A stretch of 63,988 nt of DNA, the filler included, from Stramenopiles sp. TOSAG23-2 (Eukaryota): NCBI GenBank assembly GCA_900128395.1. It is 13 parts of 13 records of this genome, joined end to end, with 100 filler letters (N's around TTAATTAATTAA, not from the genome) between each part and the next. Parts side by side here need not be neighbours in the genome. Positions count along the whole stretch, not along the records: positions 47,970 to 53,851 come from LT650569.1; 12 more parts are not named here. One strand, 5' to 3'. The translations under genes were made by a program, and so were the position numbers. The notes under the pieces were generated by a model, which had not been told where the DNA came from, did no database searches, and worked only from the letters and a program-made list of their open reading frames with translations. Shown piece after piece: positions 31,757-54,196 of the stretch (its first letter is position 1; every line of letters starts with the position of its first letter).

Positions 31757-32443
31757 ATGTCCACACGTACTCCTCCCCGTAGTACATCCACGTACCAAGC
31801 ATTGTTTGATGGGAAAACATTGAATGGATGGAAATACCAACCTGGTTTATGGTCCGTTAATGTTGATGAGAATATAATTATTGCAAAATCAACTAATCCT
31901 GTTTTGGAAAGTACATATTGTTTAACAAATAAAGATGATTTTACAGATTTTAGATTATTAATTACGGTAAAGCTAGTCGAAAGTGAAATGCATAGTGGAA
32001 TCAGCTTTTGGGGGTACGTACCACCAGAACAACATAATAATAAATATGGATATGCTGGTCATTTGGTTATGTTTCCATCTTTTTGGGGAGTGTTTGATTT
32101 ATTGCCATCACCTAAAAAAACTGGGGCACATGTTGGAAGAAATTTAATTTATATTGATCCTGGAAAAATTGCACGAAAAACTGGAAAACAACATGATTGG
32201 AACGAATTAGAAATTTTAGCAAAAGGAAATCATTTACGTGTAGCGTGTAATGGCGTCATGATTGTTGATTGGAAAGATCCAGAGCCGGAGCGTATTCGCC
32301 CTGCACCAATTGGACTTCAATTGCATTCAAATAATGTACCACAAGAAGTTCATTTCAAAAATATTTATATTGAAGAATTTCCATCGCTTGATGAATTAAT
32401 CACTGTTAATAATAATAATAGAAGAAATACTAGTAAGTTGTGA
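31757..32443 (+). CDS. DUF1080 / 3-keto-disaccharide hydrolase-like protein with PTS1 (SKL)
   Basis: LFDGKTLNGW, HSGISF, DWNELEILAKGNHLRVACNG, PIGLQLH, VHFKNIYI. Ends in SKL. Confidence 0.88.
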   Translation: MSTRTPPRSTSTYQALFDGKTLNGWKYQPGLWSVNVDENIIIAKSTNPVLESTYCLTNKDDFTDFRLLITVKLVESEMHSGISFWGYVPPEQHNNKYGYAGHLVMFPSFWGVFDLLPSPKKTGAHVGRNLIYIDPGKIARKTGKQHDWNELEILAKGNHLRVACNGVMIVDWKDPEPERIRPAPIGLQLHSNNVPQEVHFKNIYIEEFPSLDELITVNNNNRRNTSKL

Positions 32444-47501: not shown

Positions 47502-48233
47502 TTTCTGTTGCTTCTGTACGTAAGTATGTATATATATACTATGTTTTTACATTATAGTATCTCTTTTTGTGTTTTGGGTAATTTTATTTTCATTCGAATT
47601 TAAATTCATAATTGCACGAACAATAACTACGTAGTACTAATATTGTACAGTATACAATAACTATACTTGTATTATACCTGTACTAAACTGGTGGAAATTT
47701 TATACGAGCTCGTATAGAAGACGACTTTTTTTGTATTTGGCACCTCCTTTTTTTTATTTCTTGGTTGTTTCGCGTTTTATTATTGGTCTTTAGCATCAAG
47801 ATAACATTGAGTGTAAAAATTCCCTTGTCTATCAAATACATCAAACACTACAAATCTGCTATACTTGTANNNNNNNNNNNNNNNNNNNNNNNNNNNNNNN
47901 NNNNNNNNNNNNNTTAATTAATTAANNNNNNNNNNNNNNNNNNNNNNNNNNNNNNNNNNNNNNNNNNNNATAAGATTTCGTTCCCCTTGATTTCGGTCCA
48001 ATTGGTTCCGATTTAGAATCTACCGCTAAGGTAAAGGCAAGCGTTAGCTGGTTAGTTTAAGTTGTTTGTTATACTAAAATAATTAATTTATTGGTGATGG
48101 AATGAATAATATATTAGAAACAGATGGCATATGCATATATATATATATATAGAAAATAATAGACTAGATATATTATTACGATCAACAACTTATTATTATC
48201 GCCTACAAAGACCATTTATTATCAATATATCTC

Positions 48234-49082
48234 ATGAATTATACATTATATCCGTGGTTAGAAAATTTTAAAAATCCATCAAATATACAATTTTTACAAC
48301 ATGCAAAGGAAGAATTATATGACAAAGGTGTGACAACGATACCAAATTTTGTAACAAAAGAGGCATTGGAAAATATGAGAAAAGAAAGTGTTAAAAAAGG
48401 CAAGGTAGCATATGAAACGAATGATTTACATAATGTATATTTACTATCACCAGATATGGATTTAAATACTTATCCGGATAAAAATCATTTACGTAATCGA
48501 CTTTATAAAACCCACGTAGCAAGTATTGCGTATGATGAATTGAATCCTGAAAATGCATTAGCAAAACTTTACAATTCAGAAACACTATTAAAATTAGTTG
48601 CATTTGTTACAGGTCAAAAAAAATGTTATCATTCAATTGATCCATTAGGACGTTGCAGTGTAAATGTTTTTAAACATACATGGCAACATGCATGGCATTT
48701 CGATGAATCTGAATATAGTACCACATTAATGATACAAAAACCGAAAGACGGTGGTATTTTCCAATATAGCGAGAAAATAAGAGATAATAGTGATGAGTTA
48801 GTTGTAGACTTAGTTGAAAATATTATGGATGATCATTTACAACCGGAAGAACGATTAGTACAACGGCATGATTTAATATTTGAGGAAGGTACATTATCCA
48901 TATTTTCTGGCAGGCGTTCCTTGCATCGTGTAACAGATTGTATTGGAGATCTTGATCGATTAGTTGCAGTTTTTACATTTAGTCAAGAAAAGAATTATAA
49001 AAATAGTATTGAAGTTAGAAAATTATTTTGGGGACGCTCTGGTGAGGAAGATGTATCGTCAAGTGTCAGCAGTAAATTGTAA
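48234..49082 (+). CDS. Fe(II)/2-oxoglutarate oxygenase, BesD/HalD-related with HxD hydroxylase-type motif, with PTS1
   Basis: HAWHFDESEYSTTLMIQKPKDGGIFQY, GTLSIFSGRRSLHRVT, RLVAVFTF. Ends in SKL. Confidence 0.85.
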   Translation: MNYTLYPWLENFKNPSNIQFLQHAKEELYDKGVTTIPNFVTKEALENMRKESVKKGKVAYETNDLHNVYLLSPDMDLNTYPDKNHLRNRLYKTHVASIAYDELNPENALAKLYNSETLLKLVAFVTGQKKCYHSIDPLGRCSVNVFKHTWQHAWHFDESEYSTTLMIQKPKDGGIFQYSEKIRDNSDELVVDLVENIMDDHLQPEERLVQRHDLIFEEGTLSIFSGRRSLHRVTDCIGDLDRLVAVFTFSQEKNYKNSIEVRKLFWGRSGEEDVSSSVSSKL

Positions 49083-49312
49083 AAAATATGTGTTTGTGTA
49101 TGTCATACTACAGCTAAAAATACAAAATATAATATATTATACGATCGTATGTGTACACACACTAAAATCAAGAAGAAGCTGTACCGCAAATATTTATTTT
49201 TTATTACGCTCTTCTCACTTTGATGCATTCACCAACAAAGTACGAACATCGTACGACATACGAAGTCGTATATATTATTATACACAATATCATCTTCCGC
49301 CGCGCCCTTGTT

Positions 49313-50236
49313 TCACAATTTAGATGAGGAAGAAACATTTTTTCTTTGCTGCGGTAATAAGTTATCATCATTATCTTTTTTTTCTTTCTCATCATAAATG
49401 ATTGGAAACCAATCAAAACGTAATTGTTGACCATCAATCATATTGTGACCAGGAAATGGTGGTGATGTTCGACCAGGTCTTGTTATATATACAACATCAT
49501 CGCCAACAAAACGTAAAGACAATGCTCTGCGACGTTTATTAGTTAAATTACCATTTGCACCATGTGCAGTTTTAAAATGAAATAATAAAACATCTCCTGG
49601 ATCCATACTCCAAGATAAAATATTATGTTTTTTATTATTATTATTTTCATCGAAAATGAAGTCATTTGAAGGTACTGGTTCATATTCTTCATCATTATTT
49701 ATATTTACATTATTATAATTATTTGAATCATCATAAAAATCACTATCGTCCGCCCAACTGACAGGACGTATCATTTTATCCCATAAATGTGAACCTGCAA
49801 TGAATTTTAATGATGTTTTTTTATCAACAGGATCTAAGGGGATCCACAAACTGACAGTCTGAAAGCCTTCAAGAAAGTAATATGGCATATCAGCATGCCA
49901 AGGTGTCAATTTCATGGTATATGGTTCTTTTATTAAAACGTGATCATGAAAAAATTGAGATGTTTTACTTTGCATTGCCAATGCAGCAAGCTTACCAACT
50001 TTGGAATGATATATTATTTCTTTAAATTCATCAATTCGTTGCCAATTGCAATAATCATCAAAAAATCGTCCTTCTCCTTTTTTCACTGCATTTTCACTAG
50101 CATATTGACTAGGAAATTGTAAATTTTTCTCCACACCTTTCCCTATTAATTCCAATTCTGTTTTGGTCAAGACATTTTTTACCAATACACAACCATTTTG
50201 TTGGTATGCTTCGATTTGTGACGATGTGATTAACAT
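49313..50236 (-). CDS. Phytanoyl-CoA dioxygenase (PhyH) family Fe(II)/2OG oxygenase with PTS1
   Basis: QIEAYQQNG, FFHDHVLIKEP, TPWHAD, VSLWIPLD, FIAGSHLW, PGDVLLFHFKTAHGA, RRRALSLRF. Ends in SKL. Confidence 0.92.
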   Translation of the reverse strand: MLITSSQIEAYQQNGCVLVKNVLTKTELELIGKGVEKNLQFPSQYASENAVKKGEGRFFDDYCNWQRIDEFKEIIYHSKVGKLAALAMQSKTSQFFHDHVLIKEPYTMKLTPWHADMPYYFLEGFQTVSLWIPLDPVDKKTSLKFIAGSHLWDKMIRPVSWADDSDFYDDSNNYNNVNINNDEEYEPVPSNDFIFDENNNNKKHNILSWSMDPGDVLLFHFKTAHGANGNLTNKRRRALSLRFVGDDVVYITRPGRTSPPFPGHNMIDGQQLRFDWFPIIYDEKEKKDNDDNLLPQQRKNVSSSSKL

Positions 50237-50787
50237 TGTATATGTATATATATATATGTATTATATAAATCTTGTTGTTGTTTGGCCTCTCTCTCTTTTG
50301 AATATATAATTATATTATTTATATATAAATAAGAAAAGAAGAACCAGAACTTGCTTCTTCTTCTTCTTCTTAGCAAAAAATTCACATCATATTTTGGTTT
50401 ATAATAGGTTGTTTTTAAGGAGCGCACCGAACCGAGCGACGGGCCAGCTGGGCCAGCCAAGCTCTGGCAAGGCAGGACGGCCTCCATGACATAAACCGAA
50501 TTCTATGCTAATGCCTTGTAAATGAGAAGGATGCGACAATAATTCATCGAACACACAAGGTAATTAAATAAAATATGATTAACAATACAAGTAAAATGTG
50601 AACAAGCTAATGTGTACAAACAACATTTAGTACAAACTACAAGTAATTATACTTCTCTCTCTCCCGCTCTCTCTGAATATAGATAGATAGATAGATAGAT
50701 ACGTATAGATATACATATTAAAGCAACGAACAGAAACAAGTACATATAGAAACTCGTTATAGTGATAAGTATAGCTATACGTAATAA

Positions 50788-51303
50788 ATGAATAATATTA
50801 TAAAATATTATAATTACAATAATAAAAAATGTATGATCATTTTTAATATTATCATCATCATATTTTATTGTTGCAATGTTTTAGTATTACCAATATCATC
50901 GACAAATAATAATGAAGAAGAAGAAAATATTAGTATTAAACAAACAACGAATAATAATATAAATGCAATTGTATTAGCGGAGCATACATCATGTAGACGA
51001 CAAAGGTATTATGTAGCAGAAAATGTAAATGATTGTCGAGTACTGTTAGATAAAGCATTGGAACAAAATAAAATTGAAAGTAATGTATTTAATAATCAAC
51101 CAATTGATACATTATCTGCTACTGATTATCCAATAGGTTGTATTGTTGATTACCAAAAGAAGAAAATCTTTTTTAATAAGCGCTCATCTTCTCGCGCAGC
51201 ATGTTCAAGTAGGAAAACATGTTTATGTTGGCGCGATGAACCAACATGTGCATTGAATATTACATACGTTAATAATAAGCTACTTGTGCTTGTAGAGTAT
51301 TAG
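50788..51303 (+). CDS. Small secreted or membrane Cys-containing protein, possibly truncated
   Basis: Hydrophobic N-terminal segment and a Cys module (YPIGC...FFN...CSSRKTCLC). Confidence 0.55.
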   Translation: MNNIIKYYNYNNKKCMIIFNIIIIIFYCCNVLVLPISSTNNNEEEENISIKQTTNNNINAIVLAEHTSCRRQRYYVAENVNDCRVLLDKALEQNKIESNVFNNQPIDTLSATDYPIGCIVDYQKKKIFFNKRSSSRAACSSRKTCLCWRDEPTCALNITYVNNKLLVLVEY

Positions 51304-51369
51304 TTTGCAGAGGTGCATTAGAGCTTTACTATAGTAGGATAACATATTATTCTTGCGATTGAGTATTGA

Positions 51370-51422
51370 GCATATTACTTTAACACGAGAAACATAAAAA
51401 TATTATAACTTAGATTTTAACC
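51370..51422. repeat. Dispersed ~50-bp repeat shared with 35995-36046
   Basis: gcatattactt(t)aacacgagaa...attataacttagattttaacc is found on two different contigs. Confidence 0.8.
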
Positions 51423-51719
51423 ATACTTATATTATATGATATATAATATACGTATATATCTATCTCACAAGATGTGTCGATAATTTCCGTAACAGAAATT
51501 ACCGATGAGGTAAATAGATGTTATCAACCTACGAAGTATCATTGATGAAAAATATGAAGAGGGTCGGGAAATAAATTGTGCATATATACGAGTATAATAT
51601 AATACGAAGTATATATATGTATTTCAACAAATAATACAAACACACCCTTTCCTTGTGTAAGCACGATTAGGAGACAAAAATACACACACCATCTTTTTTC
51701 ATGTTTATATGTCTCTTCT

Positions 51720-53432
51720 TCACTTCACATGCAATCCTTGACTCACCGCAAATGCACCAAATTTCAATTCTACCATTAATTCTGCATCAATTAATTCAAT
51801 TTCATGTAATATACTATCACCTAATTTTGATTTTTGTTTTGATGGACCCAATCGTTCCCATTCTTCACGCAATTCTTCTAATTTGATTTGATCAAAATGT
51901 TTTTTTCGTAATGTTACAATAATTTTCTCTTCCATCTCTTTTGCATTCATTAATGCATCATAAACACCTTCCGCTTGTTCTTTTTTTTTCGTTTCATGCT
52001 TTGATATTAAACTACTTTTTTCAAATGCTTTTGCTATATATTCATCTAATGCATTACAAAATAAACGCCGGGCATTTCTTTCTTTTAATAAATTATCATC
52101 AGCGCATTTTAAATGCATATACTTTAAAATTGCTTTTGTCATTTCAATATGACCTTTCATGATACATGCTCCGATTGGACTTATCATCTCGCAAGTTTCT
52201 TTATACAACTCAACACCATTTCTATTTCCTGTTGTCCAATTCAATGATTTCATAATTGGTTCAATGCAATCAATTGAATTGAAAAATGCAATAGCAACTA
52301 ATGGTGTTAAATGCATAGCCATTTCTGATCGTGTCTCGATATTTACACTTGTATCATTAAATGATATTAATTTTCGCACAACTTCTGGGTGATTAAAACG
52401 ACATGCTTCAACCAATGCAATACGACCACCTGTTCTAGATTCCATATTAACCTTTGCTTTACGTGCTATTAAAACACTTATCATTTCAACATGACCATGT
52501 CTGGCTGCTAATGTTAATGGTAAATGTCCAAAAATATTATTACGATTTGGATCTGACCCACGTTCTAATAATATACGAGCAACTTCGCATTGCCCATTGA
52601 TACAACATTGATTTAATGCCGTATAACCTTTCTGTGTTTCATAATCAATTTTAGCCCCTTTCTTTAATAACATTCGTACAATATCACTATGACCAAAAAA
52701 TGCTGCTTGTGTCAATGCCGTATGACCGGTTGGTGTTTCAAAATCTATTTTTGCATTTCTATCTATACATACCATTGCAGTACCTAATGCACCCCTTTCA
52801 CATGCATGTGTCAATAATGTATTTCCATCAACGCCAACCATATCGATTTTCGCACCATGATCTAACATCAAAAAAATTGATTGATGTTCAGCTTGTAGAC
52901 CAGCTTCTAACATTGCTTCACTGGTCGGCTGTGCTTTTGTATTTTCCAACATCCAACGAATAAAATCACTACTATCTGGTACTCTTACTGCTTGTATTAA
53001 TGGAGTTTCATGGAATATATTTTTATAATTCACATCAGCGCCATGGCGAATAAGATATGATGCAATTTCAATTGATCCTATTTTACATGCTTCCCCTAAA
53101 GCAGTCAAACCACCTGATGTTTCATAATCTACTTGTACGCCTAATATAATTAATTTTTTTATACAATTTAAATTATTATATTGCGCAGCACGAATTAAAG
53201 CAGTTATGCCACCAGGAATAGCAACTTCTGTACTTAAAAATTCTAAATCTTTCTTTGGATCTTTTGATGGAATACGTTGCACTTCACCTGTATGGTCATG
53301 TGTATGTATATAACCAATGGAACGCGTCGTTGCGATATAGATAGCTTCATCTATACGATTTTCTTTCACGGCTGCACTAACTTCAGTTAATAATATAGTT
53401 TCCTCTGATTTATATATACCTAAATGACTCAT
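51720..53432 (-). CDS. Ankyrin-repeat protein
   Basis: About 9 ANK repeats, e.g. GHTALTQAAFFGHSDIVRMLLKKGAKID. Confidence 0.93.
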   Translation of the reverse strand: MSHLGIYKSEETILLTEVSAAVKENRIDEAIYIATTRSIGYIHTHDHTGEVQRIPSKDPKKDLEFLSTEVAIPGGITALIRAAQYNNLNCIKKLIILGVQVDYETSGGLTALGEACKIGSIEIASYLIRHGADVNYKNIFHETPLIQAVRVPDSSDFIRWMLENTKAQPTSEAMLEAGLQAEHQSIFLMLDHGAKIDMVGVDGNTLLTHACERGALGTAMVCIDRNAKIDFETPTGHTALTQAAFFGHSDIVRMLLKKGAKIDYETQKGYTALNQCCINGQCEVARILLERGSDPNRNNIFGHLPLTLAARHGHVEMISVLIARKAKVNMESRTGGRIALVEACRFNHPEVVRKLISFNDTSVNIETRSEMAMHLTPLVAIAFFNSIDCIEPIMKSLNWTTGNRNGVELYKETCEMISPIGACIMKGHIEMTKAILKYMHLKCADDNLLKERNARRLFCNALDEYIAKAFEKSSLISKHETKKKEQAEGVYDALMNAKEMEEKIIVTLRKKHFDQIKLEELREEWERLGPSKQKSKLGDSILHEIELIDAELMVELKFGAFAVSQGLHVK

Positions 53433-54196
53433 GTTGTGTATATTTCTATTTTATATATATATATATATATTTGAACCGAAAACTAATAAAAAAAGGGAAA
53501 AGGAGAATATTTTTATATCTATAACGATCAAGCGATTACTAATGATACGAAAGATAATGGGGAAGAACGATGTATGTACATATAGATGATCATTTTCTGG
53601 AAAACTTTTACAAATATACCTCCACAGGTACATGTAAGTTGTTTTTTCGTGGTCCTTTCATAAGTCCTAAAATAAGTTGCATTCCAGGTATTGTAAAAAT
53701 AACGTCTAGTTTTAGTATTCCTCCCTTTATTACCAGGTAATACCAGGGCACCAGGTATATAATACAGGTATTCCTGGTGGTATTCTGGTACAGTATTATC
53801 CTCTAGGCGTGATTCGTAATCCACATAATTATGTGGTTTTATAGCATAGACNNNNNNNNNNNNNNNNNNNNNNNNNNNNNNNNNNNNNNNNNNNNTTAAT
53901 TAATTAANNNNNNNNNNNNNNNNNNNNNNNNNNNNNNNNNNNNNNNNNNNNCAAAGATTCAAGGGTTTATGTTTGATGAACTTTGTATTCCGCAAAATAC
54001 ATTTTGTTAAAAAAAGAAGAGAGGGACATTAAAATAAATACGTATACCGAGTCGTAAAAAATTTTACGGACGTTCTCGTAAAAAATATAATACGAACCGT
54101 ATTTATTATTTTAATATTTTATTTTTAAAAATTACTTCAATACACACACATTATATACATATATCATATATAACCCGAAAAACCTCGTCTCTCGTG

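Follow-up and report, generated by a model that had tools for sequence, protein, structure and literature searches.

Two neighbouring genes for Fe(II)/2-oxoglutarate (2OG) oxygenases of different families lie tail to tail in a 63,988-nucleotide stretch of DNA from Stramenopiles sp. TOSAG23-2 (GenBank assembly GCA_900128395.1), and both of the encoded proteins end in Ser-Lys-Leu (SKL), which satisfies the tripeptide criterion [SAC][KRH][LM] used here for a C-terminal peroxisomal targeting signal type 1 (PTS1). This whole stretch, 13 parts of 13 records joined by filler, is referred to as the window, and the pair, designated gene A and gene B, lies in the part derived from record LT650569.1 (positions 47,970 to 53,851). 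The explanation which we favour as a whole, and which we regard as evenly poised between right and wrong, is that two hydroxylase-type enzymes of separate derivation were retargeted to the peroxisome, where they would serve one pathway. Both enzyme families are already known; this subfamily pair and its substrate have not been described.

The convergent gene pair and the encoded oxygenases

The features of the locus, in positions along the window, are as follows.

48234..49082, plus strand: gene A, HalD/BesD-fold Fe(II)/2OG oxygenase, open reading frame (ORF) of 282 amino acids (aa), triad H155-x-D157...H231
49071..49079, plus strand: S-K-L codons of gene A (candidate PTS1), read directly; stop codon TAA at 49080-49082
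49083..49312, no strand: AT-rich spacer of 230 bp separating both stop codons (both 3' ends), from the sequence
49313..50236, minus strand: gene B, PhyH-family, MysH-like Fe(II)/2OG oxygenase, ORF of 307 aa, H114-x-D116...H225
49316..49393, minus strand: C-terminal extension of gene B (~residues 282-307), ending in S-K-L (codons 49316-49324)
49622..49735 (approximate), minus strand: Asn/Asp-rich insertion of gene B (~residues 168-205), from the alignment

Translation of the ORFs gave the protein ends ...SSSVSSKL for gene A and ...VSSSSKL for gene B, and as the N-termini of both proteins aligned with the starts of their homologues, the two ORFs were considered complete and uninterrupted. The same convergent gene order was found on a separate metagenome contig of 2256 bp (L081), whose proteins are 98-99% identical to those of the window; since this contig is independent and carries the same pair, the junction between the two genes is no assembly artefact. 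The G+C content of both genes was 31%, and that of neighbouring genes 32-33%. Of all ATG-initiated ORFs of at least 30 aa in the six frames of the window, 3/332 ended in SKL, all three being among the 40 ORFs of at least 100 aa, and these endings are not a product of chance.

Gene A matched the Pfam profile PF23169 (HalD) with 42.8 bits (cut-off 26; E = 5.3e-11) over positions 8-218 of the 228 in the profile. It carries the motif WHFD at residue 154, and H155, D157, H231 and R242 were invariant in an alignment of 33 sequences. The AlphaFold2 (AF2) model of the protein had a predicted local distance difference test (pLDDT) score of 93.2, with values below 50 at residues 276-282, which correspond to the flexible tail. 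Foldseek searches with this model returned HalD (7u6h), HalB (7u6j), the BesD-homologue hydroxylase 7jsd, BesD and HalA as top matches, with E-values from 3e-14 to 3e-12, sequence identities of 12-17% and, for the best chains, template modelling (TM) scores of 0.61-0.66 when normalised to the query and 0.67-0.74 when normalised to the target, the latter being 0.69-0.74 for HalD, HalB and 7jsd. A profile search of the PDB likewise reached HalB (E = 9.4e-9), HalD (8.9e-7) and BesD (1.4e-6); a single-sequence search of the PDB with the gene A protein gave no match, so that BesD, HalB and HalD were reached only by profile and fold. NCBIfam contained no meaningful family for gene A, for gene B or for the bacterial partner proteins described below.

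The profile alignment revealed H-W-G in the halogenases HalB, HalD and BesD at the place where the gene A family has H-F-D. A role of gene A as a radical halogenase of the BesD type was ruled out, as Asp occupies the aligned Gly position and is invariant in the 33 relatives, and hydroxylase-type chemistry is expected because the metal-binding Asp is intact and not replaced by Gly or Ala. Arg83 of HalB is described as a carboxylate-binding residue (PMC10041140). It aligned with R89 of gene A, within a gapped stretch of the profile alignment, and R89 was judged by eye to be kept in most of the 33 rows; this match gives a weak hint that the substrate of gene A may bear a carboxylate, and it is the one lead towards a free basic amino acid, as used by the lysine- and ornithine-modifying enzymes of the BesD family.

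Gene B scored 108.1 bits against PF05721 (PhyH; cut-off 22, E = 9.7e-31) and carries the motif WHAD at residue 113, with H114, D116, H225, R236 and R237 invariant in an alignment of 19 sequences. Its AF2 model reached a pLDDT of 85.2, and values below 50 were confined to residues 173-181, within the Asn-rich insertion, and to the tail (residues 291-307). MysH (PDB 9c9n), the palythine-forming oxygenase from cyanobacterial gene clusters for mycosporine-like amino acids, was the nearest solved relative, with a sequence E-value of 3.5e-34, TM scores of 0.70 (query-normalised) and 0.81 (target-normalised) and ~27% identity. Gene B is far closer (54-58% identity) to a large family of marine-bacterial proteins of ~256-274 aa without known function. 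An assignment of gene B as MysH itself, i.e. a palythine synthase, was rejected on account of the low identity and of a genomic context that holds no cluster for mycosporine-like amino acids; neighbours of the mys type were found neither in the window nor at the six bacterial loci, out of 14 in the gene B clade (see below), that were Pfam-scanned. Phytanoyl-CoA 2-hydroxylase proper was rejected as well, the match to 2a1x having an E-value of 0.0014 over 48 residues.

The original prediction, made from the sequence of the window, had described uninterrupted ORFs placed tail to tail 230 bp apart and both ending in SKL, one of them BesD/HalD-like with WHFD and the other of the PhyH family with WHAD, and had argued from the intact HxD motif to a hydroxylase. 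The ORF calls, the codons and contig L081 bear out this arrangement, the scores above the Pfam cut-offs agree with both family assignments, and the comparison of H-W-G with H-F-D upholds the argument from the motif.

C-terminal tails and histories of the two genes

Among the 120 HalD-like matches listed, five end in a tripeptide of the PTS1 type (SKL or AKL in P0001, P0002, P0003, P0004 and P0009), and all five are among the closest relatives of gene A, with 58-99% identity. In the subclade that contains the window protein together with P0002, P0005, P0003 and P0004 (support of 99 in the Shimodaira-Hasegawa-like approximate likelihood ratio test, SH-aLRT), four of the five rows end in SKL or AKL; the tag was found in none of the 16 remaining rows of the eukaryotic HalD-like clade, which include Triparma, two diatoms and MMETSP transcripts. 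The seven eukaryote-like PhyH rows end in SKL (window and P0125), SRL (P0126 and P0132), SNL (P0122) and SKV (P0123) or have no tag (P0131), which makes four canonical endings, two near-canonical ones and one untagged row. No PTS1 tag was present among the bacterial-type PhyH matches of ~256-274 aa listed, and these bacterial homologues stop a few residues (up to ~8) past a DWFP motif and hence are without the extension of gene B. EukProt entries occur in the clusters of P0122 and P0123, as do split gene calls, which suggest introns.

Since tails of this kind are shared with the closest eukaryotic relatives but not with bacterial or more distant eukaryotic homologues, the proteins of genes A and B are likely to be imported into peroxisomes. 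In the stramenopile Phaeodactylum, as reported in PMC3178647, a fusion of green fluorescent protein with SKL (GFP-SKL) reaches the peroxisomes, SKL being sufficient for import, and the peroxisomal proteins listed include malate synthase (AKL) and glycolate oxidase (SRL); neither 'dioxygenase' nor 'phytanoyl' occurs in the main text of that paper. Many of the more distant eukaryote-like HalD-like proteins, among them P0399, P0410, P0419, P0429, P0442 and P0453, have Arg/Ser-rich N-terminal extensions and no PTS1. These extensions resemble mitochondrial presequences, and the compartment of the HalD-like family may vary by lineage.

In the PhyH tree, the window protein was placed inside a clade (SH-aLRT 98) of the marine-bacterial proteins of ~256-274 aa, hereafter clade B, whereas the PhyH genes found next to HalD-like genes in bacteria formed a separate clade (100). 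Forcing the window PhyH into the latter clade cost 107.6 log-likelihood units (p = 4.9e-6 in the approximately unbiased, AU, test). The Asn/Asp-rich insertion was located at the same site in all seven eukaryote-like PhyH rows (alignment columns ~227-265) and was absent from bacteria, which points to one acquisition in eukaryotes, although these rows fall in three separate places in the quick tree. In the HalD-like tree, which included divergent alphaproteobacterial paralogues, the eukaryotic rows, with unnamed metagenome proteins presumed to be eukaryotic, formed one clade (100), sister (92) to a Dongiaceae/Rhodospirillaceae group lacking a neighbouring PhyH gene. The tagged subclade was nested among untagged eukaryotic members; judging from this tree, the HalD-like clade appears to be old in eukaryotes and the tag to be a later addition. 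Genes A and B thus very probably have separate origins, differing in source and age, and a single transfer of an operon is unsupported.

The neighbours of clade-B PhyH genes varied among the 14 alphaproteobacterial loci of this clade. At two of them, whose PhyH genes are the closest bacterial relatives of the window PhyH, a cupin of the dimethylsulfoniopropionate (DMSP)-lyase type (PF16867) was located directly beside the PhyH gene (L200:9016-9690, minus strand, and L205:10474-11106, plus strand), which may connect these genes with the metabolism of sulfonium compounds or osmolytes. A gene of the HalD-like superfamily was present in 9 of the 14 alphaproteobacterial genomes with a clade-B PhyH vs 51 of 401 genomes overall; this co-occurrence was not counted as support, as the HalD-like copies are only 22-36% identical to the window protein and far from the PhyH gene, and the genomes are related.

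Linkage of genes A and B was seen only in the window's own species, i.e. in the window and the near-identical contig L081. According to the cluster tables, a HalD-like fragment of 77% identity lies on a contig of 131.8 kb, and PhyH relatives lie on contigs of 125 kb and 31.8 kb. The identity ladders of HalD-like and PhyH relatives (~99/98, 74/76 and 60/57-59%) ran in parallel and close to that of GcvP (100/78/75%), which fits, and does not prove, a joint descent of both genes through the same related species.

Bacterial neighbourhoods and the host locus

With a HalD-like query, loci were obtained from bacterial genomes (80 loci, fetched with the HalD-like alignment) and from metagenomes (80 loci), bacterial ORFs were called with our own script, and a pair was defined as a PhyH gene located at most 300 bp downstream of a HalD-like gene and on the same strand. 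Such pairs were present at 30 of the genome loci and 24 of the metagenome loci, i.e. at 54 of 160 in total; nine of the other genome loci had a more distant PhyH gene and five had less than 400 bp of flank. Two alphaproteobacterial genomes (G001:C54 and G108:C3) also showed the pairing, in their case between divergent members of each family. The bacterial pair is common in marine Gamma- and Alphaproteobacteria, sponge-associated groups included, and its carriers comprise Arenicellales, Granulosicoccaceae, Poriferihabitaceae, Hyphomicrobiales and other marine groups. Identity to the window proteins was 34-43% for the bacterial HalD-like proteins and 33-38% for full-length PhyH matches. That the two genes recur as neighbours speaks for a functional link between their families. 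A literature search, whose coverage was incomplete and which is no proof of absence, retrieved no title on the bacterial HalD-like/PhyH pair. At one locus from Poriferihabitaceae (L054:10823-11610), the HalD-adjacent PhyH matched in two frames, suggesting a frameshift or a sequencing error.

Neighbouring genes were surveyed at the 54 paired loci and the two divergent ones (56), of which 47 remained after removal of near-duplicates. The recurrent neighbours, none of which has a homologue in the window, were the following.

SBP_bac_5 binding protein (transporter): 14/47 paired loci
protein of ~370 aa, NicX/Peptidase_M29-like: 11/47, same strand throughout, with a median position immediately following PhyH
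ABC ATPase: 10/47
sulfatase: 9/47
EamA transporter: 7/47
thiamine pyrophosphate (TPP) enzyme: 6/47
Rieske oxygenase: 5/47
malate synthase G: 5/47, all on the same strand and downstream

Single paired loci add MTTB, an FMN/FAD oxidoreductase and a fusion of 3-hydroxyacyl-CoA dehydrogenase with a thioesterase. We read this neighbourhood as one for the catabolism of a small polar nitrogen compound. The gene for the ~370-aa protein (e.g. L004:11618-12727, plus strand) had no match in Pfam or NCBIfam and was placed by the protein atlas near NicX/Peptidase_M29-like clusters (score 0.97). Homarine catabolism, considered because this third bacterial gene is NicX-like, was dropped, as the published hom operon, which is flavin-based (PMC13236597), is unrelated.

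Around the gene pair, ORFs of the window carry ELMO, MYND, ankyrin, teneurin-type EGF, LNR, EF-hand ion channel and GcvP domains (Pfam). Every named best match of the window GcvP was a stramenopile (57-62% identity), with unnamed relatives at 75-78%, and we read the window as DNA of an uncultured, AT-rich and intron-poor marine stramenopile and genes A and B as nuclear. This source organism was detected in many marine metagenome runs. Contigs from three RNA libraries of three studies, X15 and X17 made with oligo-dT and X16 as the third, were colinear with genes A and B at 95% identity or more, at the following positions.

X15: 48175-48672, 48792-49045 and 49273-50030
X17: 48524-48834 and 49434-49804
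X16: 48207-48415 and 48685-49064

Both genes are thus present in RNA libraries without an intron. The 230-bp spacer was neither covered nor bridged by the RNA and DNA contigs aligned, which is uninformative either way.

Other ORFs of the window are recorded here as side observations. The third ORF ending in SKL (31757-32443, plus strand, 228 aa, ...RRNTSKL) matched PF06439 (3-keto-disaccharide hydrolase) with E = 6.4e-27. An ORF of 260 aa at 44359-45141 (minus strand), on a eukaryotic contig, matched SLATT_1 (PF18181), an effector domain with two transmembrane segments that is known from conflict systems of bacteria. An ORF of 629 aa at 42037-43926 (plus strand) combines AhpC/TSA_2 with DUF6875 (E = 4.4e-56), an unexplained fusion.

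A possible shared pathway, its alternatives and candidate chemistry

Since both families are habitual partners in marine bacteria, a shared pathway for genes A and B can be argued with about equal force for and against. Several points weigh against the favoured explanation as a whole. The window PhyH, from its place in the tree, is not an orthologue of the operon-linked PhyH genes, none of the 14 alphaproteobacterial loci of its own clade had a HalD-like gene within 10 kb, and 36 of the 80 bacterial genome loci were without any PhyH. Among eukaryote-like loci, both genes occurred together only on L081; no PhyH was found within the 1.1 kb downstream of the HalD-like gene on L082, the only closer relative with a readable flank. 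The trees were short-search trees with SH-aLRT support only, and the group for the AU test was named after the tree had been seen. The RNA evidence consists of assembled contigs, which do not show strand or level and could stem from DNA carry-over.

One alternative is that genes A and B are chance neighbours, both peroxisomal and in different pathways, so that their adjacency is functionally meaningless. On L082 the HalD-like gene, 60% identical and ending in SKL, has another gene beside it (an EF-hand-like ORF in the 1.1-kb downstream flank), PhyH is also absent from the more distant eukaryote-like loci L083-L095, clade-B PhyH genes were never next to a HalD-like gene, and the third, unrelated SKL ORF 16 kb away indicates that PTS1 genes are not rare in the region. 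However, members of the same families are immediate neighbours at a third of the loci obtained with the HalD-like query, the association recurs with divergent members, and it would be a remarkable coincidence for precisely these two families to be adjacent and to carry matching tags; we rate chance as unlikely, though it is the most serious of the alternatives. Transfer of a HalD-like/PhyH operon as a whole, followed by inversion of one gene and addition of PTS1 tails to both, would account for the operon-like occurrence of the pair in many bacteria and for the resemblance of the HalD-like tail after FWGR to some gammaproteobacterial tails. It is opposed by the placement of the window PhyH (98) outside the HalD-adjacent clade (100), with the AU test rejecting their union, by the absence of a PhyH neighbour in the bacterial group nearest (92) to the eukaryotic HalD-like clade (100), and by the nesting of the tagged subclade among untagged eukaryotic members, which together make it very improbable.

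That the SKL ends are non-functional for targeting and both enzymes cytosolic is improbable. The endings SNL and SKV of two close PhyH relatives are weaker, and HalD-like P0005 and PhyH P0131 are untagged, but the tails are extensions that bacteria lack and that were kept across relatives differing by 25-45% in sequence, both are modelled as exposed or disordered (pLDDT below 50), and SKL suffices for import in a stramenopile (PMC3178647). Bacterial contamination or a chimeric assembly could be suspected from the mainly bacterial homologues of both proteins; this has a negligible probability in view of the G+C content of both genes, which is the same as that of their neighbours, the Asn-rich insertion in gene B, the PTS1 tails on both proteins, the same pair on an independent contig, the presence of both genes in oligo-dT RNA libraries, and the EukProt entries and apparent introns in the clusters of two close PhyH relatives.

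Taken together, the original interpretation holds in part. In addition to the families and the hydroxylase type, the expected adjacency of the two families in bacteria was found (54 of 160 loci), the trees agree with a bacterial ancestry of both proteins, and an SKL-type tail is conserved in the closest eukaryotic relatives (4/5 HalD-like and 4/7 PhyH rows) and absent from bacteria. Co-transfer of the two genes from bacteria had also been proposed and is unsupported in the light of the AU test and the 0/14 clade-B loci with a HalD-like neighbour. The same applies to a recent bacterial origin of the HalD-like gene, which belongs to a eukaryotic clade (100) with untagged other members, and to conserved linkage in relatives, which was not seen in L082, the one closer relative with a readable flank.

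If the favoured explanation of a separately derived, retargeted pair is correct, each gene of bacterial ancestry would have gained a flexible C-terminal tail with a PTS1 tripeptide at its end, the adjacency and the matching targeting of the two genes would have arisen within this eukaryotic lineage, and Pex5 would import both enzymes into the peroxisome matrix. Of this account, the genes, their folds and catalytic residues, the tails, the pairing in bacteria and the separate phylogenies have been shown here; import, a common pathway and the chemistry are inferred. The shared pathway would oxidise a small amino-acid-like nitrogen compound, with the HalD-like enzyme performing a C-H hydroxylation and the PhyH enzyme then hydroxylating next to the nitrogen, leading to C-N cleavage. 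For MysH, hydroxylation at the alpha-carbon of an N-linked glycine has been proposed, with release of glyoxylate (PMC10666671), and for gene B this chemistry may be taken as a lead only. Our best guess for the substrate is an amino-acid-like nitrogen compound, possibly yielding glyoxylate. Glyoxylate-releasing chemistry as such appears doubtful; the idea is drawn from the analogy with MysH, from the malate synthase neighbours and from the peroxisomal site of glyoxylate metabolism, and from nothing else.

A bolder and rather improbable proposal is that a heterotrophic marine stramenopile, starting from two bacterial genes acquired separately, rebuilt in its peroxisome the two-enzyme module found as an operon in marine bacteria. 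The HalD-like enzyme would then hydroxylate an amino-acid-like metabolite that is abundant in the sea, for instance an opine, a mycosporine-type compound or an N-substituted amino acid, and the MysH-like enzyme would hydroxylate the carbon next to the nitrogen and split off glyoxylate for use by peroxisomal malate synthase. If true, bacteria and protists of the ocean would possess a catabolic route that is both new and widespread, and a eukaryote would show convergent, operon-like clustering combined with organelle retargeting. Cooperation of the two enzymes in itself would connect a pathway in a eukaryotic organelle with a bacterial operon that is so far uncharacterised, and could supply a missing turnover route for a dissolved organic nitrogen compound; it would also mean that a eukaryote directed the products of bacterial genes from different sources to one destination and placed these genes next to each other.

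Among the known systems, human PHYH is a peroxisomal 2OG oxygenase with an N-terminal peroxisomal targeting signal type 2 (PTS2) and an acyl-CoA substrate. Human PHYH (2a1x) and PHYHD1 belong to the PhyH family like gene B but are very distant from it (TM 0.57-0.61), and PHYHD1 is reported to demethylate free 2'-O-methyl nucleosides (PMC12709175). With MysH, gene B shares the PhyH-type H-x-D...H...R residues. Gene A resembles BesD, HalB, HalD and the lysine hydroxylase (6nie, 7u6j, 7u6h and 7jsd) in its fold, its PF23169 match and the L-H-R context of the distal His; it differs from BesD, HalB and HalD by Asp in place of Gly, a hydroxylase type as in 7jsd, by its eukaryotic host and by its PTS1 tail. 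The C-terminal SKL of both proteins, for which import is predicted from sequence, corresponds to the SKL, SRL and AKL ends of the PTS1 matrix proteins of Phaeodactylum. Compared with the bacterial pair, which is co-directional and untailed and whose PhyH belongs to a different clade, the pair of the window is convergent and SKL-tailed.

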